A stretch of DNA of 8,325 nt from a virus (IMGVR_UViG_2609460221_000006:1-8325); one strand, 5' to 3'. Positions 1 through 8,325 are shown, counted from the first letter of the stretch. Translations and numbers: made by a program. Notes: generated by a model from the letters alone, not told the origin.

Positions 1-907
1 GTGCATCATCTAACGGGATTTCATCGGTCATAATGGCAGATTGCGCTTCGCGTGATTGCTTAAGCCACCATTTAATGGTGTCCCGATCAATGACTCCGCC
101 AGCAGTTTCCAGATCGATAGTCTTACTAAATTCCGGTCCCATATCTCCGGTTTGCGGATCGAAAAATATTGCACCTATTGAGATAATCGGGGCATCTGGA
201 TTTTTTCCCATGGTTTCAAGGTCGATCATTAGATGGTCACACGTCCCGCTGGTGGATGTGCCTTTATGATGACCGTTCACCTTAACTGAGTGATCTGTCG
301 CCTCGCCAGTTTCACTATCGCTATCGTGATGCTGATTGCCGCCAGGGTTCTCCTTGTGTGGATGTTCAGTGCCTTCCATTTCCTCCGGATCATTTTCCTG
401 AACTTCAACCTGATTCTCTTCATTGAATGTTTCCTGGTATGTTGCGTCGCCCATCACCGCGCCACAATCAGGGCAGTTGCCGCCGCCGGTCTGACCGCAG
501 GCGGTGCAGATCTTTTCCGGTTCCTGTTGCACTACTGGTTCAGGTTGTTTCGTTTCTGGCTCGTTTTGTAACGCATTTGGGCTGTTTTGTTCCGCTTTCT
601 GGCCGTTCTGTTCCGTTTCTTGCTGGTTCTGGTTCACAGAATCGCGGGTTTCCATCCCCTTGACCCATTTCGGATCATTCGGGTCGCTAATCCCTGCAAC
701 AAATTCTCCGCGAGAGGCCGCAAGCAACTTATCGGCGTCAGGCTGGCTGATATTGGCTGCCTGCATAATTTTGTTTACTTCGTCAGCGGTAACTTTTACC
801 TGATTAACCGGATCTATCTGTGCCTGAGTATCCAGCGATTGCGTGTCCTGGCGATGTTCAGTTGTATTCGGCTCCATTGCTTCAGTCGTTGCCTGTTCAT
901 CTGCCAT
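1..907 (-). CDS. recE: RecE-family exonuclease VIII, downstream portion (partial, runs off the window; separated from the N-terminal ORF by a frameshift)
   Basis: Minus-strand frame open from ATG 907 to position 1, translating [30 protein letters not shown]...[30 protein letters not shown]...[16 protein letters not shown]... The [10 protein letters not shown] / [13 protein letters not shown] blocks match what I recall of the middle of E. coli RecE. The same frame is open upstream across the stop of the 936-2144 ORF. Confidence 0.6.
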
Positions 908-935
908 TGCGTCAGACGGTTGTGATTTTTCCTCA

Positions 936-2144
936 TTAATTTTTTTCTTCTTCTGTTTCGCGTTCAGCAGCCAGTTCGCGGTTAACTTCTTCCAGGATAT
1001 CTTTTTCCGGTGTATGTCGTGCAGCAGCGAGAGTTTCCTCGGTAGGGTTCTCGTGATCAGTTTCCGTCAAATAGGCGTTGATATACCCCTGAAGGCGTCC
1101 CGGGTAGTGATAAAATTCAGGGTGTGCGCTTCGGATAAGTGCAAAAATAGCGGCGCGGGAATAATCCAGGATACCCGGGATTGCGCGAAGTGCTGCGGAC
1201 CATTCTTTGAACGGACTTTCTTTCTTCCGGACGACTTCTTTTGCGCGACGATAAACGCTGCCCGGAATTTCATAAATATTAAAATCCATCGGAAGTGTGG
1301 CCGCTGCAATCTCCACATCCAGCGTATCGAAGGTGTGTACTAAATTCGGATTGCGATCGGTTTTGTTCCCTCCACCGGCATTAGCACCGGAAGCCGTGCG
1401 GGTGATGCGTGAAACACGATTTCCTTTCATCCACTCTTTTGTCAGCAGACCGCGATCGGTGTAGTCAGCGCCCAGGTATGCTTCGAAAAAAGCAGTCATC
1501 AGTCCCAGGTCTGAATTACCAGGATTAGGGAAAACTTTGTCCGTGTCACGAACCAGTTTGTGGAGATCGCGAATTTCCAGCGGTTCGAGTTGCGCTGCTT
1601 TATTTGAGATGGCCAGCGCGGTAACGGCGGGAAGTTTTTCATCCTGTGCGTTATGTAATGTGCGCAGTTCGTCCCGCGAAACGTGTGTGATCGGTTTTTC
1701 GCTGCCGTGCTGTGCCAGCCATCGAACAGGCAGAATCTGACCTGAAACCGGCAGGAGCATGTTCTCCTCAATCTCAGCCATGTCTTCGCCGTTGACGTTG
1801 GTATTGTCAGTGCTGGCTGGTTTATCCTGAACAGAGGGCGAGGGCGCGATAAGTACCATTGTGATACCATCTTCACCGCCCTTTTCGTATCGGTTGCAGA
1901 ATTCGGTATCAAACACGCCTTCCGGAGGAAGGTCATTCACAACGGGTAAATGGACGCGAACAGGTTTTTTAAAATCCTCTTTGTCAAATCCGGCATCGTC
2001 CATTGCGACAACACCGCGTGATATTGCAACCGATAATTTTTTTGCTGTGCGCCAGTAAAAACCGCCTTTAATTCCAAGACGTTTTCTGATTTTGTCATTT
2101 TTGGCTTCGTAATATAGTGCAATTTCTTCTTTATCAGTGCTCAT
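936..2144 (-). CDS. recE: RecE-family exonuclease VIII, N-terminal 402 aa (ends at TAA 936-938, probably prematurely)
   Basis: 402-aa ORF with blocks [111 protein letters not shown], recalled as the RecE N-terminal region. GAGG Shine-Dalgarno 8 nt upstream of ATG 2144. Confidence 0.8.
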
Positions 2145-2221
2145 TGATAAACCTCATTACAGATTTAAGGGTGAACAAATCCCTGCCATTGCTGGCATAT
2201 AAAAATGAAACCGGATATTAA

Positions 2222-2425
2222 TTACGGTGCTGTTTTAAGCCCCGCCGGGATTTCGTTATTGTCCATGTGAATAACTTTATCGACCGGATAACAGTTGCCG
2301 GGAATTTTCTGTTCCGCTGCGGCAGCCATGCATTCTTTCATTGAGTTGTACATGCCGGTGATTGCATCAAGCGACTCACCAGTATTGAGATGTACAGTCA
2401 GAATGAGTACGAATAATGTGTTCAT
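2222..2425 (-). CDS. Small hydrophobic protein, 67 aa, YdfD-like by position (tentative)
   Basis: ATG at 2425 overlaps the dicB stop (ATGA coupling); GGAGA Shine-Dalgarno upstream. N-terminal hydrophobic segment MNTLFVLILTVHL. Its position directly after dicB corresponds to ydfD in the Qin dicB operon; sequence identity to YdfD is not verified. Confidence 0.5.
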   Translation of the reverse strand: MNTLFVLILTVHLNTGESLDAITGMYNSMKECMAAAAEQKIPGNCYPVDKVIHMDNNEIPAGLKTAP

Positions 2426-2610
2426 CGCCACTCTCCGAAAATACCGAGTTTAAGAAGGGCAATTCTGGAGAGTATGGAATTGTCATTCAGCAGGTAGGGT
2501 TCATATTTTCTCATATTGATTGCATCCTCGGTGAAATCCCTGTTACTGAGCAGAACACCAATATTAAAGCACCCGTCAGACGTATTAACGTTTGGTAGTG
2601 ACGTTTCCAT
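2422..2610 (-). CDS. dicB: Cell-division inhibitor DicB homologue, 62 aa
   Basis: Translation METSLPNVNTSDGCFNIGVLLSNRDFTEDAINMRKYEPYLL... matches the recalled DicB signature (LPNVNTSEGCFEIGV...FTEDAINKRK) at the same 62-aa length. GAGGA Shine-Dalgarno 7 nt upstream of ATG 2610; lies just downstream of DicF as in Qin. The ORF track's longer 97-aa version (to 2715) has no support for its N-terminal extension. Confidence 0.8.
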   Translation of the reverse strand: METSLPNVNTSDGCFNIGVLLSNRDFTEDAINMRKYEPYLLNDNSILSRIALLKLGIFGEWR

Positions 2611-2779
2611 TATCGCGTCCTCAACAATGAATTTTGTGATGCGGTGCCTGGTGCCTCCAGGTGACGTTAACCAGTTAACAATTAACGCCGGATACAGAGA
2701 ATCCACCCATAACACTGTTTTTGGTTTTAACTGTTCCGCGTGCGCTCAGCCGCATTCACCACATCACAAAATTCACTTT

Positions 2780-2822
2780 AAAAAGGGCGGCAGAGCAGTC
2801 ACGGAGTAAAACTGATACCGCC
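2780..2822 (-). terminator. Intrinsic terminator hairpin forming the 3' end of DicF
   Basis: Minus strand GGCGGTATCAG...CTGCTCTGCCGCC stem-loop followed by a run of 5 U (plus-strand A 2780-2784). Probably leaky, since dicB lies downstream in the same operon. Confidence 0.6.
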
Positions 2823-2837
2823 AAAAGTCACCAGAAA
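2785..2837 (-). ncRNA. dicF: DicF small RNA (Hfq-dependent ftsZ-targeting sRNA processed from the dicB operon transcript)
   Basis: Minus-strand sequence TTTCTGGTGACTTTTGGCGGTATCAGTTTTACTCCGTGACTGCTCTGCCGCCC followed by TTTTT, matching the 53-nt DicF as I recall it apart from one possible substitution. Ends in a GGCGG...CCGCC hairpin plus U-tract. The 5' end is processed, so it is approximate. Confidence 0.85.
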
Positions 2838-3172
2838 ATTGATAACAGAGGGCGTTGCAGCGGAGTTGTCACTTAAGCGTATGGTCAACCTGACAACCCG
2901 GTGTCCTCAACGGGGGAAGGAATAACCCCGCCATACTTACCGCCGCGCCATTTCGCGGATTGCCACAACCGGAAGCGCACGGTCGACGAAAATTTAACGA
3001 CAGGCTATCTATGAACCAGCTACCTCGCCGTGCGCTTTCGCGTTATGGTCTGACTTTTCAGGGAAATATCCTTTCAGTAAACTGTCAGTGCCGGATGCTC
3101 ACCCGTGTCCGGCGCACGCACTCCACCTCACCCGTGGAGAACTCCTTAATCACCAACCCTCAGGAGGGTGAA

Positions 3173-3448
3173 ATGTCGACTGAAAATGATGAAATCATTA
3201 ACTCCCTGATACGCCAGATTAATAATTTTGATAAAGCATTGCAACATGCTGCGGCGCGTAGTGATATAACTCTTTTAGCAATTTCATTTCTTGCATCTGT
3301 TATGGATAAAAATGAAGTCGTACGACAGAGTCTTGTTGATTATATCGACTCGCTTCAACCCGGCACTTTCAATCATGAGAGCTTCAATCATGAGAAAGAG
3401 CATGTTAAGTCTGTAATTAATTCTCTTATTTTGAATCAAAAGAATTAA
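3173..3448 (+). CDS. Hypothetical protein, 91 aa, in an AT-rich island (unknown function)
   Basis: Strong Shine-Dalgarno CAGGAGGGTGAA directly before ATG 3173. The in-frame upstream part of the ORF-track call (2960-3172) is GC-rich with no RBS and is rejected. Base composition drops sharply at 3173. Predicted mildly acidic and helical, with an FNHES-FNHE tandem repeat; no motif I recognise. Confidence 0.6.
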   Translation: MSTENDEIINSLIRQINNFDKALQHAAARSDITLLAISFLASVMDKNEVVRQSLVDYIDSLQPGTFNHESFNHEKEHVKSVINSLILNQKN

Positions 3449-3746
3449 TGCTTTTTGTTGCAAAGTAATTTTCAAGGGGTTCTATTCGAATCCCTTTCTT
3501 TTTCATTAACAAGCCAAACCCCTTATCAATGATGTCCATTAGATCCAGGAAGTATTTTTCATGTAAATCCTGGTTATCAGAGAGCTGCTTCTCTTCGTAC
3601 AGCCCGATAAAGGCTCGGCGTACGTTACCGGATATATTGTCGATGGTTTCTTTTTCTACGGTACTCAGGTCAAGAGTCGCCAGTTGAGAGCGAACCACAT
3701 TCGATGCCATTTCCTGGAATGGTACTGGTAAATCTTTAAATTCCAT
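3426..3746 (-). CDS. Hypothetical protein, 106 aa, in the AT-rich island (unknown function)
   Basis: ATG 3746 is preceded by GAGGT at good spacing. An alternative ATG at 3758 overlaps the upstream gene's stop (TGATG) and gives 110 aa. Co-oriented with the dicB operon, convergent with 3173-3448 and overlapping its 3' end by 23 bp. Acidic, helical, no recognisable catalytic motif. Confidence 0.6.
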   Translation of the reverse strand: MEFKDLPVPFQEMASNVVRSQLATLDLSTVEKETIDNISGNVRRAFIGLYEEKQLSDNQDLHEKYFLDLMDIIDKGFGLLMKKKGIRIEPLENYFATKSINSFDSK

Positions 3747-3757
3747 CGTCAACCTCA

Positions 3758-3910
3758 TCAGTCAGTGTTTCTGGTTAACCAGCGACGCGCGCCAGCTTCA
3801 GTTTTAAACGTTTTGCTTCTGGTATATGTCATCGCGGTAAACGTGCCGTCCTGGTTGGGAAACACGCCGCATACCAGAGATTCGTTGTTGCCAAGCTCGA
3901 TAGTATCCAT
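3758..3910 (-). CDS. Small protein, 50 aa, YdfA-like (DUF1391-like, tentative); first gene of the leftward operon
   Basis: ATG 3910 has a GAGGT Shine-Dalgarno 5 nt upstream. The longest ORF starts at 3991 (77 aa) but with a weaker RBS. Product MDTIELGNNESLVCGVFPNQDGTFTAMTYTRSKTFKTEAGARRWL resembles, from memory, the ~51-aa YdfA that heads the Qin dicB operon. Confidence 0.5.
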   Translation of the reverse strand: MDTIELGNNESLVCGVFPNQDGTFTAMTYTRSKTFKTEAGARRWLTRNTD

Positions 3911-4091
3911 GCTGACCTCATTTCCCCTTAACGCCGGGGTAGCGGAACAAAAACCTGCTGCATAGTTATTAAAGTTGAACCCTGCCGTCATGTTCTTACG
4001 CCTCGGGCTGGCTACTTAACCCCTGACCACTGCCGGGTAACTCGAAGTATTGCCTGGCGTTCTGTGGGGCGGGGTGGGTTGATGAATGAAC

Positions 4092-4131
4092 AATACCACT
4101 ACTATTTAATTATGTAAATAGCAGTGCTATT
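4092..4131. promoter_or_regulatory. Leftward (PL-like) operator region: two copies of a 16-bp AAATAG-N4-G(C/G)TATT site in opposite orientations
   Basis: 4116-4131 is AAATAGCAGTGCTATT on the plus strand; 4092-4107 reads AAATAGTAGTGGTATT on the minus strand. Together they form a 30-bp near-palindrome (4097-4126). The same motif occurs twice in the repressor/cro intergenic region. Lies upstream of the leftward operon, with TTTACA / TATTGT-like hexamers nearby on the minus strand. Confidence 0.45.
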
Positions 4132-4142
4132 ATCGTGGCAAG

Positions 4143-4164
4143 AAAAAAAACCACCCGAAGGTGG
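4143..4164 (-). terminator. Rho-independent terminator ending the paaR2-paaA2-parE2 operon
   Basis: Minus strand CCACC-TTCG-GGTGG hairpin immediately followed by 8 U (plus-strand A 4143-4150), 17 nt downstream of the parE stop. Confidence 0.7.
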
Positions 4165-4180
4165 TTGTTGACAGGAAGGA

Positions 4181-4471
4181 TTAACAGGTTTTGTTTGGAT
4201 ACTGTCTTCGTGAGTGAACTACATTTACGATCTCGATGTTAGATGCTGTTACTCGGTAAAGTATTATGTAGTTAGGATGAGTCACTATCTCACGAAGACT
4301 TGGAACTCTTTCGCTCGGTGGGTACAGATAAGGGTGTTCAGTAAGTGACAAAACTGATGTTTCAATGCGTATTTTTAGTCTACGTGCAGCGGGAGGGTTT
4401 TCCTTAGCAATATAGGCTACGATCTGACGTAAATCATCACGTGCAGAAGGTAGCCATAAAATGGGCAGCAT
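4181..4471 (-). CDS. parE2: ParE/RelE-family type II toxin, 96 aa (ParE2-like)
   Basis: Translation MLPILWLPSARDDLRQIVAYIAKENPPAARRL...REIVTHPNYIILYRV...IEIVNVVHSRR shows the ParE/RelE pattern. Start overlaps the stop of the upstream antitoxin ORF, a typical toxin-antitoxin arrangement. Confidence 0.85.
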   Translation of the reverse strand: MLPILWLPSARDDLRQIVAYIAKENPPAARRLKIRIETSVLSLTEHPYLYPPSERVPSLREIVTHPNYIILYRVTASNIEIVNVVHSRRQYPNKTC

Positions 4472-4662
4472 TACTCACTCCTGTTCGTTGCAGCTAATTG
4501 AGCAATAAGGTTTTCCATTTCAGCCATTACTTCGTCATGTGGAATTGCAGGACGGGGATCTGAGAGGCTTGCTGCCACTTTGGTTCGCAACCATTCGTTA
4601 TAGCTGTTTTCTTGTTCGACTGTTTCAAATTCAGAAATTATCGGGGAAAGGGCTGTACTCAT
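4471..4662 (-). CDS. paaA2: Small antitoxin, 63 aa (PaaA2-like), partner of ParE2
   Basis: 63-aa acidic ORF immediately upstream of, and coupled to, the ParE gene. GAGGAGG Shine-Dalgarno 7 nt before ATG 4662. Size and context fit the PaaA2 antitoxin of the paaR2-paaA2-parE2 module described in E. coli O157:H7 prophages; the name is by synteny and recall. Confidence 0.7.
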   Translation of the reverse strand: MSTALSPIISEFETVEQENSYNEWLRTKVAASLSDPRPAIPHDEVMAEMENLIAQLAATNRSE

Positions 4663-4679
4663 GTTTTTACCTCCTCAGA

Positions 4680-5181
4680 TTAGGCGCGACGACCCTTTTG
4701 CGCAGCTAGCCATCGCGCAACGATTTCTTCAATTGATTCTTTTTTCTCCTTCATTTCCTTAAGCATTTTCTCTTTATCTTCTTTGGGGAAAGCCCTGAAC
4801 GTCTGGAGCAAATCCCGCTCCATGGGGTCTATATTAAACGGAAGTTCGTTTTCCGATTGTTCCATATCTGCAGATATAGTGACAACATTGTCCTCCCCAG
4901 ATTCTTGGGGATACATCCTTACAATTTGTAACAACTCGGCCATATCTGGTCTGATTGACTCGGGAGGAACTTGCAGCAACCCTGCGAACTTGATAACAGC
5001 CTCAAGATTTAAAGGTGTCTGACCATTTAGATAATGGCTTACAGCTCCCTGTGTCGAAAATCCCAGAATTTCTGCCGCACGCTCTTGGGTTAACCCTAGT
5101 TGAATTTTTTTTCGCCGTCCAGATTTCTTTCAGTCTCTGGGCGGCTTGCAGGTCGATCTCTGACAGGGATTTTCTTTTCAT
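4680..5181 (-). pseudogene. paaR2: Lambda cI-like HTH repressor (PaaR2-like), reading frame broken in an A8 run
   Basis: ATG 5181 with GAAGG Shine-Dalgarno gives MKRKSLSEIDLQAAQRLKEIWTAKK, then the frame is lost in the A8 run (plus-strand T 5105-5112). The -1 frame continues (KK)IQLGLTQERAAEILGFSTQGAVSHYLNGQTPLNLEAVIKFAGLLQVPPESIRPDM... to TAA 4680. The joined N-terminus closely resembles the lambda CI N-terminal domain ([27 protein letters not shown]...). The intact-frame tail is the 4680-4979 ORF in the track. Confidence 0.75.
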
Positions 5182-5288
5182 ACCTTCAATTCTAATAAGA
5201 TTATTAATCTCTTTGAAATAGTGATGCTATTTACTTTTAAAAATAACAATGCTATTAATGATCGTGATGACATCACATGAGGTGAACA
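5182..5288. promoter_or_regulatory. Divergent promoter/operator region between the cI-like and cro-like genes (PRM/PR analogue)
   Basis: Two direct copies of the 16-bp motif, AAATAGTGATGCTATT (5216-5231) and AAATAACAATGCTATT (5241-5256), 25 bp centre to centre. A 13-bp perfect palindrome GTGATGACATCAC (5264-5276) and TAATAA-GA-TTATTA (5193-5206). Candidate rightward promoter TTTACT-N17-TATTAA. GAGGTG Shine-Dalgarno before ATG 5289. Confidence 0.55.
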
Positions 5289-5564
5289 ATGAATCTTGGA
5301 GAATATTTGCATCATTCCGGTATAACTCAGAAGCATTTTGCTGAAATTGTTGGGGTAACCCAAGGGATGGTAAGCCATGTCATTACCGGACGGGCGAAAC
5401 TTACGGGGAAAAAAATTTTACGCTGGTGCGAAGCAACAGGCTGGATAGTAACTCCGCACGAGATTGATGGCAGTACTTATCCCAACCCAACCGACGGCTT
5501 ACCTGTCGAGTATCAGGCTAACACACAACCAGAGGCGGGGGTGATTCATGAAAATCAAGCATGA
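5289..5564 (+). CDS. ydaS: Cro-like HTH DNA-binding protein, 91 aa (YdaS-like)
   Basis: HTH segment ITQKHFAEIVGVTQGMVSHVITG. Divergent from the cI-like gene across an operator-rich spacer; Shine-Dalgarno GAGGTG at 5279-5284. Confidence 0.8.
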   Translation: MNLGEYLHHSGITQKHFAEIVGVTQGMVSHVITGRAKLTGKKILRWCEATGWIVTPHEIDGSTYPNPTDGLPVEYQANTQPEAGVIHENQA

Positions 5565-5584
5565 ACACATCCGCATGGCAATGA

Positions 5585-5974
5585 ATGCCTGGGCGCATCC
5601 GGACGGCGAAAAAAGTACCGGCTGCGAAAATTACCAAAGCGTATTTCGAGCTGGGAATGACGTTCCCGGAACTGTATGACGACAGCCATCCGGAAGCCCT
5701 GGCCCGTAATACCCAGAAAATTTTCCGTTGGCTGGATAAAGACACCCCTGATGCTGTTGAAAAAATGCAGGCTCTGTTACCGGCGATCGAAAAGGCGATG
5801 CCGCCTTTGCTGGTGGCCCGTATGCGCAGCCACAGTTCTGAATATTACCGTGAGATCGTCGAACGGAGGGATCGGCTGGTGAAGGATGTCGATGATTTTG
5901 TTGCGTCAGCGGTTGTTTTGTATGACCAGATGAATCGCGGCGGCCCGGCAGGGAATGCTGTGGTGATGCACTAA
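5585..5974 (+). CDS. ydaT: YdaT-like (CII-analogue) protein; longest intact frame shown, native start probably ATG 5548 with a frameshift in an A6 run
   Basis: The 129-aa ORF from ATG 5585 has no Shine-Dalgarno and begins right after an in-frame TGA. ATG 5548 has a strong GAGGCGGGGG RBS and overlaps the cro-like stop; it encodes MKIKHEHIRMAMNAWAHPDGEK and then leaves the frame at the A6 run 5609-5614. One A fewer would give a ~140-aa product, the size I recall for YdaT. The gene name is by synteny with Rac ydaS-ydaT. Confidence 0.6.
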   Translation: MPGRIRTAKKVPAAKITKAYFELGMTFPELYDDSHPEALARNTQKIFRWLDKDTPDAVEKMQALLPAIEKAMPPLLVARMRSHSSEYYREIVERRDRLVKDVDDFVASAVVLYDQMNRGGPAGNAVVMH

Positions 5975-5996
5975 AAGCACGGTGTTCGGGGGTTTT

Positions 5997-6959
5997 ATGA
6001 GCAGCAAGCTTCATGGTCTTGTCTGGGAAGGGTGCGCCTTCACCGGCATGATCTTATCCAGGGTGGCGGTTATGGCCCGTCTTGCAGACTACAGCAATGA
6101 CGAGGGCGTGTCATGGCCTGCCATTGAAACTATCCGGCGTCAGATCGGTGCAAGAAGTGAATCCACAGTGAAATCGGCTATTGCAGAACTGGCGAAAGAG
6201 GGCTGGCTGACGAAGGAAGAGCGTAAGGTCGGTGGGCGTAATGTAAGCAATATCTATCGGCTTAATGTGGAAAAACTCGAAGCAGCTGCGGCGGCGGCGC
6301 GTGAGTCATATAAACCGAAAAGAAAAATTAGCCCGGCAAAAAATGACCCGTTAACAGTTGACCCGTCAAATATTGCCCCCTCAACGGTTGACCCGTCAAA
6401 TTTTGATGGATCAACTGTTGATAAAAAACTGCCGATTAGGGGGGCGATGATTGACCCCGATCCGTCAGTATTAAAACCTGATCCGTCAGATAAAAGATCT
6501 TCTTGTCCGGACGCTTCGCAACCGGACCCGCAGACGGCTGAACAGGATTTTTTAACCCGACACCCTGACGCGGTTGTGTTCAGTGCGAAAAAACGCCAGT
6601 GGGGAAGTCAGGAAGATTTGGTGTGCGCACAGTGGATCTGGGGACGAATCGTGAGTCTTTACGAGCAGGCGGCCAGCTATGATGGCGAGATCACTAGACC
6701 GAAAGAACCCAACTGGACAGCATGGGCCAATGACGTTCGCACAATGCGGATGCTGGATGGCAGAACTCACAGACAAATTTGTGAAATGTTTGGGCGTCTC
6801 CAGCGGGATTCGTTCTGGGTAAAAAACATCATGAGTCCGGCAAAACTCCGGGAAAAATGGGATGAACTGGTTATCCGCCTGGGGCGTTCGCCTGCGCAGC
6901 GTTGCGTGAATCACATTTCTGAACCGGACACTGAAATACCGCCGGGATTCAGGGGGTGA
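5997..6959 (+). CDS. Replication initiator, lambda O analogue (YdaU-like), with origin iterons inside the gene
   Basis: 321-aa ORF from ATG 5997 (GGGGG upstream); GTG 5982 is an alternative start. N-terminal winged-helix-like region ...VSWPAIETIRRQIGARSESTVKSAIAELAKEGWL. The central coding region carries tandem DNA repeats that encode the repeated TVDPSN / DPS peptides. Sits between the cII-like gene and the DnaC-like loader. Confidence 0.7.
   Translation: MSSKLHGLVWEGCAFTGMILSRVAVMARLADYSNDEGVSWPAIETIRRQIGARSESTVKSAIAELAKEGWLTKEERKVGGRNVSNIYRLNVEKLEAAAAAARESYKPKRKISPAKNDPLTVDPSNIAPSTVDPSNFDGSTVDKKLPIRGAMIDPDPSVLKPDPSDKRSSCPDASQPDPQTAEQDFLTRHPDAVVFSAKKRQWGSQEDLVCAQWIWGRIVSLYEQAASYDGEITRPKEPNWTAWANDVRTMRMLDGRTHRQICEMFGRLQRDSFWVKNIMSPAKLREKWDELVIRLGRSPAQRCVNHISEPDTEIPPGFRG
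6356..6489. repeat. Iteron cluster: putative replication origin within the O-like gene
   Basis: AGTTGACCCGTCAAAT at 6356-6371 and GGTTGACCCGTCAAAT at 6386-6401 (each containing the inverted pair TTGAC/GTCAA), TGTTGATAAAAAA at 6417-6429, and GATCCGTCAG at 6458-6467 and 6480-6489. Iterons inside the initiator gene are the lambda ori arrangement. Confidence 0.55.
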
Positions 6960-6965
6960 CGTGTC

Positions 6966-7712
6966 ATGAAAAACATTGCGGCAGTTGGGGTTCTTGAACG
7001 TATTCGCAGACTTGCACCACAGGGGTCGGTTCCACCGTACCGGACGGTGGAGGAGTGGCGGGAATGGCAACTTGCTGAAGGACGAAAACGCAGCGAGGAG
7101 ATTAACCGCCAGAATCGCCAGTTGCGGGTGGAAAAAATCCTGAATCGTTCGGGCATCCAGCCTCTGCACAGCAAATGCTCGTTTGCAAATTATCAGGTGC
7201 AGAACGACGGGCAAAAATACGCGCTGAGCCAGGCCAAATCCATAGCTGACGAACTGATGACCGGGTGCACGAATTTTGTGTTCAGCGGTAAAACCGGCAC
7301 CGGGAAAAATCACCTTGCAGCGGCGATGGGCAACCGGCTGATGGTGAAGGGGCGCAGCGTGATTATCGTCACCGTGTCTGACGTCATGAGCGTGTTGCAT
7401 GACAGCTACGACAACGGCAAATCCGGGGAAAAATTTTTACAGGAGCTTTGCGGGGTTGATTTGCTGGTCCTGGATGAAATAGGCGTTCAGCGGGAGACGA
7501 AAAACGAGCAGGTGGTATTGCACCAGATAATTGATCGCCGGACAGCATCACTGTGCAGTGTCGGGATGTTAACAAACCTGAATCATGCCGCAATGAGTAC
7601 GCTTCTTGGTGAGAGGATTATGGACCGCATGACCATGAACGGTGGTCGATGGGTGACGTTTAACTGGGATAGCTGGCGTCCAAATGTCAGCAATATGAGG
7701 GTTGTGAAGTAA
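6966..7712 (+). CDS. ydaV: DnaC-like helicase loader / IstB-like AAA+ ATPase, 248 aa (YdaV-like)
   Basis: Walker A FSGKTGTGKNHLAAAMG and Walker B DLLVLDEIG. AGGGGG Shine-Dalgarno before ATG 6966, which follows the O-like stop by 6 nt. Confidence 0.85.
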   Translation: MKNIAAVGVLERIRRLAPQGSVPPYRTVEEWREWQLAEGRKRSEEINRQNRQLRVEKILNRSGIQPLHSKCSFANYQVQNDGQKYALSQAKSIADELMTGCTNFVFSGKTGTGKNHLAAAMGNRLMVKGRSVIIVTVSDVMSVLHDSYDNGKSGEKFLQELCGVDLLVLDEIGVQRETKNEQVVLHQIIDRRTASLCSVGMLTNLNHAAMSTLLGERIMDRMTMNGGRWVTFNWDSWRPNVSNMRVVK

Positions 7713-7733
7713 TTTTGTCCGGAGGAAATTTTA

Positions 7734-8325
7734 ATGGAAACCGTATCTGACGCACTGAAAGCACTGAAAAAAGCCTCTTCACATGTGGTGGCAGCTCGCC
7801 TTGGAATCAGTCGTGAAGAGGCTGTCAACGAGCTGTGGGAACTCAAAAGAAAAGGCGTCGTTGATAAAACTGGTCACACCTGGTTTCTGGCTGGCGAAGG
7901 TGAATCCCGGGTAACCGAAGAGCGGCCAGTAAAATCTGAAGCACAGGATATGCTGACCGGGGAGGTCGAACAAAAAGTTACCGCAGACATGATGATTGAG
8001 TTTATCGGTCAGGATGGGGCTAAAACGTGTGAGGAACTGGCGGGTAAGTTCAGTGTCAGTACTCGCAAGGTTGCTTCCACGCTGGCGGTGGTAACCGCAA
8101 CGGGGCGGCTGGCACGCGTTAATCAGAACGGTAAATTTCGTTACTGCATGCCGGGCGATAATTTACCAGCAGAGCCGAAAGCCGCGCTGGTAACGGAAAG
8201 TGATGGTAAGGCCTTTCCTCAGCCAGCAGGTGCTGCGTTACCAGTCCGGGAAGCCGCAACACAGGAAGAAATTAAAACAGAAACTGTGGCGGACATTGTG
8301 CAGCCGTTGCCATCGTTTACCGAAA
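7734..8325 (+). CDS. Hypothetical prophage protein, partial (runs off the right edge), with two winged-helix-like segments
   Basis: GGAGGA Shine-Dalgarno 7 nt before ATG 7734; frame open to the window end (197 codons), so it is absent from the ORF track. Translation METVSDALKALKKASSHVVAARLGISREEAVNELWELKRKGVVDK...CEELAGKFSVSTRKVASTLAVVTATGRLARV. Corresponds in position to the gene after ydaV in Rac. Confidence 0.6.
   Translation, partial: METVSDALKALKKASSHVVAARLGISREEAVNELWELKRKGVVDKTGHTWFLAGEGESRVTEERPVKSEAQDMLTGEVEQKVTADMMIEFIGQDGAKTCEELAGKFSVSTRKVASTLAVVTATGRLARVNQNGKFRYCMPGDNLPAEPKAALVTESDGKAFPQPAGAALPVREAATQEEIKTETVADIVQPLPSFTE

Follow-up and report, generated by a model that had tools for sequence, protein, structure and literature searches.

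A convergent two-gene cassette of variable sequence beside the DicF leader in the dicBF operon of Escherichia coli prophages

What is the AT-rich island that lies in the early operon of the viral sequence IMGVR_UViG_2609460221_000006, and what could its two small genes be for? The stretch of DNA analysed here (positions 1-8325, 8,325 nucleotides in all, referred to below as the window) comes from an E. coli prophage of the lambdoid/Qin-like kind and covers its early region. A first-pass annotation of this sequence had singled out positions 3173-3746 as separately acquired DNA carrying two convergent genes that overlap at their 3′ ends, and had proposed them as a candidate novel accessory system. 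The explanation favoured here, to which we would give about an even chance of being right, is that the island forms the variable core of an accessory cassette with two genes, in which a hypervariable antisense accessory gene (a "moron") on the plus strand is combined with a polymorphic early gene on the minus strand. To our knowledge, an allelic two-gene cassette next to DicF has not been described so far.

The operon surrounding the island is the prophage dicBF operon, composed of ydfA, a gene for a 106-aa protein, a leader, the DicF sRNA, dicB, and ydfD, all on the minus strand. Its first gene, ydfA (DUF1391; 3758-3910), was recognised by Pfam (PF07151, E = 9e-28) and corresponds to PGAP WP_021538048.1. 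It is followed after 12 nt, counted from the ydfA stop to the next ATG, by the 106-aa gene of the island (3426-3746; PHROG 6937, PGAP WP_001435739.1), hereafter the minus gene. An untranslated leader, delimited by sequence comparison, then extends from the minus gene to DicF (2837-3425, with a conserved part at 2837-3172). DicF itself (2785-2836) matched Rfam RF00039 with 75.8 bits against a gathering score of 48, and on its 3′ side lie dicB, encoding the cell-division inhibitor (2422-2610; Pfam PF05358, E = 4e-32; PGAP), and ydfD (DUF1482; 2222-2431; Pfam, E = 2e-19). This is the equivalent of the pL, or early-left, operon of a Qin-like/lambdoid prophage in E. coli. The earlier label of "early-left operon" was therefore correct, and the matches to DicF, dicB, ydfA, and ydfD now give the operon its name; the idea that the island sits in an accessory-gene slot of such operons was supported as well.

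The DicF sRNA targets ftsZ and metabolism, while DicB blocks the entry of phages via ManYZ. The ydfB and ydfC genes are absent from the window, and the cassette occupies their place between ydfA and the leader. Both are present in the related loci L002 and L117, and in three prophages (L117, L003, and L004) the convergent pair is placed after ydfC, so that the upstream neighbour of the cassette in the direction of transcription is ydfA here and ydfC in those prophages, with the DicF leader following in each case. The conserved leader shows 90%–98% identity among all cassette types and the cassette-less ydfABC operons. Repression of the DicA type, processing of DicF from a polycistronic RNA, and phage resistance mediated by DicB have been documented (PMC10448788, PMC5069750, PMC6832061), and none of these three papers on dicBF mentions the cassette.

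Several features of the window outside the island deserve a record of their own. The HTH repressor gene beside cro (4680-5181, minus strand; ORF scan and PGAP) is split into two ORFs of 59 aa and 99 aa. The split results from one additional nucleotide near position 5103, in a homopolymeric A/T run, when the intact 166-aa WP_000824162.1 of strain W46 is taken as the reference. This frameshift is either a sequencing error or a true inactivation; if genuine, the dicBF-type operon would be derepressed. Between the repressor gene and the operon promoter lies a RelE/ParE toxin-antitoxin pair (4181-4662, minus strand; PGAP) made up of a 96-aa toxin and a small antitoxin-like gene of 63 aa, followed by a strong terminator-like hairpin on the minus strand at 4149-4166. 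Further on, a promoter-like sequence TTTACA-17-TATTGT (with TG; 4090-4126, minus strand) overlaps a palindrome with a 12-bp stem, CACTGCTATTTA...TAAATAGTAGTG; from its sequence, this element looks like a promoter of the dicBp type with its operator rather than the terminator that the scan had called. At the other end of the window, the middle part of a RecE-like exonuclease gene (801-2150) is unlike its closest relatives, strain W46 aligning at 1-800 and 2151-8325 only, and just a 402-aa ORF is open (936-2144) as compared to 823 aa in the relatives, indicating a mosaic or disrupted gene.

The first question about the island itself concerns its borders. At 35.2% GC, positions 3173-3590 are the most GC-poor 418-nt stretch of the entire 8.3 kb (rank 2 among 791 sliding windows); the leader (2840-3172) reaches 55% and the segment 3591-3746 reaches 45.5%. 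The contrast in base composition that is typical of morons is thus present, with 35% GC against 55% and 46%–50% in the flanks. The sharp drop at 3173 noted before, from 55% to 35%, was reproduced; the recovery was located at about 3590 and not at 3760. Homology to the other cassette types breaks off within nearly the same limits, at about 3172-3188 on the left and at 3474-3634 on the right, where mosaic junctions were found at several points (3474, 3566, 3587, and 3634). The flanks are common to many phages and prophages and the island is not: the shared sequence comprises 2900-3172 on the left and, on the right, begins at about 3590, or at 3760 in relatives without the cassette. Loss of homology together with GC content thus defines a variable core (3173-3590, coding on both strands) made up of the plus-strand coding sequence together with the C-terminal half of the minus gene. 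The notion of separately acquired DNA holds for this core only, as 3591-3746 belongs to the conserved flank. Nor was it a one-off insertion; the slot exists in at least five alleles, and the one carried by the window is designated type 1.

The convergent arrangement described in the first-pass annotation was fully borne out. An ORF scan recovered the 91-aa plus-strand frame (3173-3448; PGAP WP_000102678.1), an orphan of type 1 that we call the plus gene, with its strong ribosome binding site, the Shine-Dalgarno sequence AGGAGG at 3162-3167, which is separated from the ATG by 5 nt and lies at the border of the conserved DicF leader. The 106-aa minus-strand frame at 3426-3746 was found as well; an in-frame ATG further upstream, at 3758, would extend its product to 110 aa, and the homologues and PGAP start at MEFKDLP. 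The 3′ ends of the two genes overlap by 23 bp (3426-3448) inside an AT-rich inverted repeat (3416-3449); in the minus-strand RNA this repeat would fold into a stem of 13 bp that is not followed by a U-run. Both products are small, acidic (pI 5.41 for the plus and 4.97 for the minus protein), and predicted to be all-helical, as had been stated. In the AF2 models, the plus protein forms four helices (pLDDT 69), whereas the minus protein is predicted to fold into a three-helix bundle (helices 8-22, 32-53, and 59-83; pLDDT about 69) with a disordered tail (residues 94-106, pLDDT below 50).

An orphan frame in AT-rich DNA might not be a gene at all, and the island could consist of the end of the minus gene and, for the rest, of spacer without coding function. 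In favour of such a reading, the plus protein is restricted to Escherichia and is found in 15 clusters among 5.8e9 proteins, the modest pLDDT of 69 of its model has been mentioned, and no promoter match precedes it. The substitution pattern argues strongly in the opposite direction. Relative to an allele of 84% identity (43–44 nt differences), the plus frame shows a dN/dS of 0.28–0.32, the lowest among the six frames, and when the same transitions and transversions were scattered in a substitution simulation, as few amino-acid changes arose in 0.03% of the trials (P = 0.0003). By base-composition arithmetic, a frame of 91 codons would stay open by chance in random sequence of 35% GC with P of about 0.001. 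More than 40 type 1 loci preserve the plus frame, and the indels seen there are in frame. A 15-bp in-frame tandem repeat (3368-3397, encoding FNHES/FNHEK) is present in one to three copies depending on the strain, giving proteins of 86, 91, or 96 aa (86 aa in L088 and 96 aa in L030). With the strong Shine-Dalgarno sequence added to this evidence, we consider the non-coding reading very improbable; as judged from its pattern of substitution, the plus ORF is a protein-coding gene under purifying selection. A nearly full-length copy was found in 198 of 5426 complete E. coli genomes when alleles of about 86% identity were included.

The minus gene, likewise genuine and subject to purifying selection, is of a different kind. 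Its product matched phrog_6937 over residues 1-106 (E = 6e-67) and phrog_1363 over residues 1-66 only (E = 2e-26), and its family comprises 231 protein clusters. According to the alignment, the part at 3591-3746 encodes the conserved N-terminal portion of about 53 residues (MEFKDLP...GLYEEK), which is common to all cassette types and is then followed by unrelated C-terminal parts. The N-terminal domain recurs in 933W-like Stx phages at 46% identity, and a 147-aa homologue assigned to PHROG 1363 occurs in phage PA2 without a convergent partner. In sum, the minus gene is an unremarkable member of the early operon that belongs to the PHROG 6937/1363 family; the helical domain at the N terminus of its product is conserved, and the C-terminal part is polymorphic. 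A role as an N-like antiterminator was considered and ruled out, by inspection only, since the protein is acidic.

Comparison of the slot beside the DicF leader among prophages revealed at least five sequence types, each with a convergent small ORF that overlaps the 3′ end of the minus gene. In type 1, that of the window, the plus ORF of 91 aa meets a minus ORF of 106 or 109 aa with an overlap of 23 or 32 bp. The corresponding values are 73 aa, 124 aa, and 11 bp in type 2; 92 aa, 133 aa, and 41 bp in type 3; 77 aa, 135 aa, and 23 bp in type 4, which occurs in the ompW prophages of EHEC and also in Evi, an isolated phage; and 100 aa, 122 aa, and 77 bp in type 5. Types 1-4 have one common Shine-Dalgarno sequence and ATG at the leader edge, placed before unrelated coding sequences. 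The variability of the slot centres on the plus gene, which is hypervariable: between subtypes 1a and 1b, identity amounts to 98%–100% in the leader and 93%–98% in the minus gene, as compared to 77%–87% in the plus gene. Not all plus proteins can be regarded as unrelated cargo, as this view was ruled out by a weak full-length similarity between those of types 1 and 3 (phrog_18692, E = 0.022; hhalign P = 0.0011 with 31% identity over 78 columns); because of this similarity, some alleles may be very diverged homologues. Abrupt mosaic junctions and the existence of several alleles are frequent among lambdoid phages and alone are no proof of an arms race.

The two genes come and go together. In 178 sampled prophage contigs with enough flanking sequence, either both were present or both were absent. 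Among the leader-bearing IMG/VR contigs, 73 have neither gene, with ydfC adjoining the leader, about 70 have both, and none has one intact gene only. About half of the sampled prophage copies thus possess the extra two-gene cassette directly upstream of DicF. This check of the distribution across prophages also showed that the ORFs are conserved in related prophages. The junction between cassette-bearing and cassette-less operons lies about 20 nt past the ydfC stop. An imperfect direct repeat of 19 bp, with the copies AAcTCcTTAAtTaCCAacc and AAaTCtTTAAaTtCCAtta, was found at both ends of the cassette (L117, 46-64 and 639-657) and as a single copy where the cassette is absent (L002, 2740-2758); it may be the footprint of an insertion/deletion event or a product of chance.

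Strict linkage of this sort raises the possibility that the genes form a cognate two-protein system, of the toxin-antidote or effector-immunity kind, in which the variable C-terminal part of the minus protein would neutralise its own plus protein. A known case of such opposition is found in phage P22, where SieB is countered by Esc. Besides joint gain and loss, the cognate reading draws on the observation that, in types 3-5, a different plus protein comes with a different C-terminal half of the minus protein, and on the 3′ overlap, by which the expression of the two genes would be coupled. However, types 1 and 2 have the same minus gene up to about codon 91 (92% nt identity, to position 3474), yet their plus proteins are unrelated, and the difference between their minus proteins is confined to the tail that AF2 predicts to be disordered. 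Either gene is also found without a functional partner. The plus gene is frameshifted to a 27-aa stub beside an intact 133-aa minus gene in six type 3 loci (L007-L009, L068, L102, and L105), and because of these frameshifts it appears to be dispensable in some lineages; conversely, the minus gene is disrupted or shortened and the plus gene intact in L021 and L041. Adjacency alone can explain the linkage, because there is no conserved sequence between the genes in which recombination could occur. With the solitary family member of PA2 and the lack of matches to toxin-antitoxin or defence families also against it, we regard a cognate pair as unlikely. The "system" of the first-pass annotation accordingly survives in part: the pair is a unit of gain and loss, but the same folded minus region accompanies unrelated plus proteins in types 1 and 2 and the minus family also occurs alone.

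At the other extreme, the two could be unrelated early genes, or genes for anti-defence or host takeover, that happen to lie side by side in a mosaic region, their overlap and co-occurrence being accidents of packing. Small orphans are abundant in lambdoid early-left operons, the minus family lacks a partner in Stx phages, and the right-hand junctions are scattered rather than uniform, all of which would suit this explanation. Nevertheless, five unrelated or barely related sequences keep one layout and one translation start, and the pair is strictly either present or absent as a whole. The plus gene is, moreover, antisense to the operon and therefore no ordinary early gene transcribed from pL. 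On balance, mere neighbourhood has a low probability in our view.

Searches for function yielded no relative of known function for either gene, whether by profile, sequence, or fold, in agreement with the earlier statement that the products match nothing recognisable. When both proteins and the plus and minus proteins of types 2-5 were compared with Pfam, NCBIfam, PADLOC, and PHROG, the only matches were PHROGs devoid of functional annotation. A phmmer search with the plus protein among 1.84e9 representatives returned its own cluster and one dubious match to a repeat protein. A profile of the minus N-terminal domain run against 5.8e9 proteins retrieved nothing but short E. coli proteins that lack annotation, and no fusion to an informative domain was among them. 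In PADLOC-DB 2.0, the plus protein reached a non-significant match to BrxA (E = 0.014, 12.7 bits), and the minus protein gave nothing; the defence or anti-defence role raised in the first-pass annotation is hypothetical. Sequence searches of the PDB found no match for either protein, and Foldseek comparisons of the AF2 models (with the PDB for both proteins and with BFVD for the plus protein) gave nothing below E = 0.5. PGAP labels both genes as hypothetical proteins in RefSeq genomes, and in the literature neither the accessions nor the PHROG are mentioned, and no paper deals with these genes. The pair does not resemble a type II toxin-antitoxin module, as the genes are convergent and lack matches to toxin or antitoxin families; the window does contain a genuine module of this class, the RelE/ParE pair described above. 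Membership of the SieB family can be set aside as well, with no Pfam, PHROG, or NCBIfam match and a length of 91 aa against about 190 aa.

The sequences that might govern expression of the plus gene bear on both its proposed function and a further alternative. A hairpin resembling an intrinsic terminator and followed by a T-run lies on the plus strand at 3474-3506, inside the minus gene, with a predicted dG of about -11.6 kcal/mol; it begins 26 nt past the stop of the plus gene. The hairpin is kept in type 2 and absent from types 3-5, so that an intrinsic terminator as a general feature of the cassette was ruled out. Any promoter of the plus gene must sit on the plus strand of the leader (2837-3172). 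Between DicF and the plus ATG, no plus-strand promoter with at least 9 of 12 consensus matches was detected, the best score there being 8 of 12. The best candidate nearby, TTTTCA-17-TAAACT (3055-3083), is not diagnostic, because it is equally conserved in cassette-less operons. The nearest sequence with 9 of 12 matches, TTAACA-16-GAGAAT (2675-2702, plus strand), lies about 470 nt upstream, beyond DicF, in a position antisense to dicB and DicF; if active, it would direct the synthesis of a DicF antisense RNA that continues in the direction of the plus gene.

Such considerations lead to the possibility that the locus acts mainly through RNA. The plus transcript would then serve as an antisense brake on dicBF, reducing read-through to DicF and DicB, or as an allele-specific exclusion RNA directed at related phages that enter the cell, and the ORF would be secondary. 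The transcript would be fully complementary to the operon mRNA from the minus gene to the DicF leader, the hairpin predicted at the overlap is stable, and a brake would suit an operon whose products, DicF and DicB, are toxic and under tight control (PMC10448788). Prophage antisense RNA that excludes phages of its own type has a precedent in STnc6030 of phage BTP1 (PMC7067206). Against an RNA role stand the signs of selection at the protein level, namely the low dN/dS, the in-frame indels, the strong conserved Shine-Dalgarno sequence, and a third-position bias that also appears among type 2 alleles (11 of 15 nt differences at third codon positions). Operons of the K-12 type work without the cassette, and the promoter scan of the leader gave only the low scores reported above. 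A function that resides chiefly in the RNA therefore seems improbable to us; the antisense placement of the plus gene could all the same modulate the production of DicF and DicB.

We thus return to the cassette with an antisense accessory gene. The plus gene is an opposite-strand orphan that would start at the ribosome binding site on the edge of the DicF leader and run into the 3′ end of the minus gene. Its low GC content, the predicted terminator-like hairpin after its stop in types 1 and 2, and its antisense orientation to lytic genes are moron-like traits, and the last of them is characteristic of prophage accessory loci (PMC7067206). Given these traits and the layout reminiscent of lambda sieB, we therefore read it as an antisense accessory gene. 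By analogy with sieB, its expression would probably take place in the resting prophage, as long as the operon stays repressed, and firing of the operon would silence it by head-on transcription and antisense pairing. Its product would most likely serve in phage-phage conflict, through the exclusion of incoming phages, or provide some other benefit to the lysogen; by the same analogy, a role in phage-phage conflict is plausible.

A more specific and bolder version, which we consider quite unlikely, would make the slot an allele-specific locus of exclusion and escape. The plus protein of a resting prophage would block incoming lambdoid phages, and those with a matching cassette would escape, either because the variable C-terminal part or the tail of their early minus protein neutralises the matching plus allele or because their head-on transcript does so. 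If this were true, the five or more alleles would represent incompatibility types, on which it would depend whether a given prophage can superinfect a given lysogen, and such an incompatibility locus would adjoin the DicF/DicB phage-resistance module. Even in its general form, an accessory gene expressed in lysogens would be a candidate for a new exclusion or lysogenic-conversion factor, and type 1 of the cassette alone is found in about 4% of complete E. coli genomes, including EHEC-associated prophages. The allelic series, with its fixed translation start and interchangeable coding sequences, constitutes a natural experiment on specificity. If no phenotype is attached to it, the cassette is one more lambdoid orphan pair.

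Among known systems, the closest in layout is the superinfection-exclusion gene sieB of phage lambda (and likewise sieB/esc of P22). SieB is a membrane protein that is expressed from the prophage and aborts other phages. In lambda, sieB (34482-35036) is encoded on the plus strand within the pL operon, in antisense orientation, and its end directly adjoins the stop of N, a minus-strand gene at 35037-35438; like the plus gene, it is a lone gene opposite the early-left operon, near the immunity region, and converges on an early gene. The resemblance ends at the proteins, as no similarity in sequence or fold was detected and SieB has 184–192 aa, whereas the plus proteins have 73–100 aa, are hydrophilic (GRAVY -0.05 to -0.31, with -0.31 for that of the window), and contain no membrane segments. 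Unlike the sieB locus, the slot of the cassette is hypervariable and its genes truly overlap. The dicBF operon of Qin (ydfA-ydfB-ydfC-dicF-dicB-ydfD) shares the backbone of ydfA, DicF leader, DicF, dicB, and ydfD; in K-12 it contains ydfB and ydfC and no cassette, whereas the window has the convergent pair before the leader and neither ydfB nor ydfC. With the antisense RNA STnc6030 of the Salmonella phage BTP1, the cassette would have in common a transcript antisense to phage lytic genes and the possibility of sequence-specific action against related phages (PMC7067206). STnc6030 is encoded in the late region and has no ORF longer than 60 aa, while the antisense unit of the cassette encodes a protein under selection. 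Morons, finally, which are prophage accessory genes with an expression of their own, resemble the cassette in a base composition that deviates, an orientation against the surrounding lytic genes, and presence/absence polymorphism, and a predicted hairpin of the terminator type follows the plus gene in types 1 and 2; the cassette differs in including a second gene, which belongs to the host operon and is overlapped by the plus gene. Taken as a whole, the cassette fits the known mosaicism of lambdoid phages and their antisense accessory genes.
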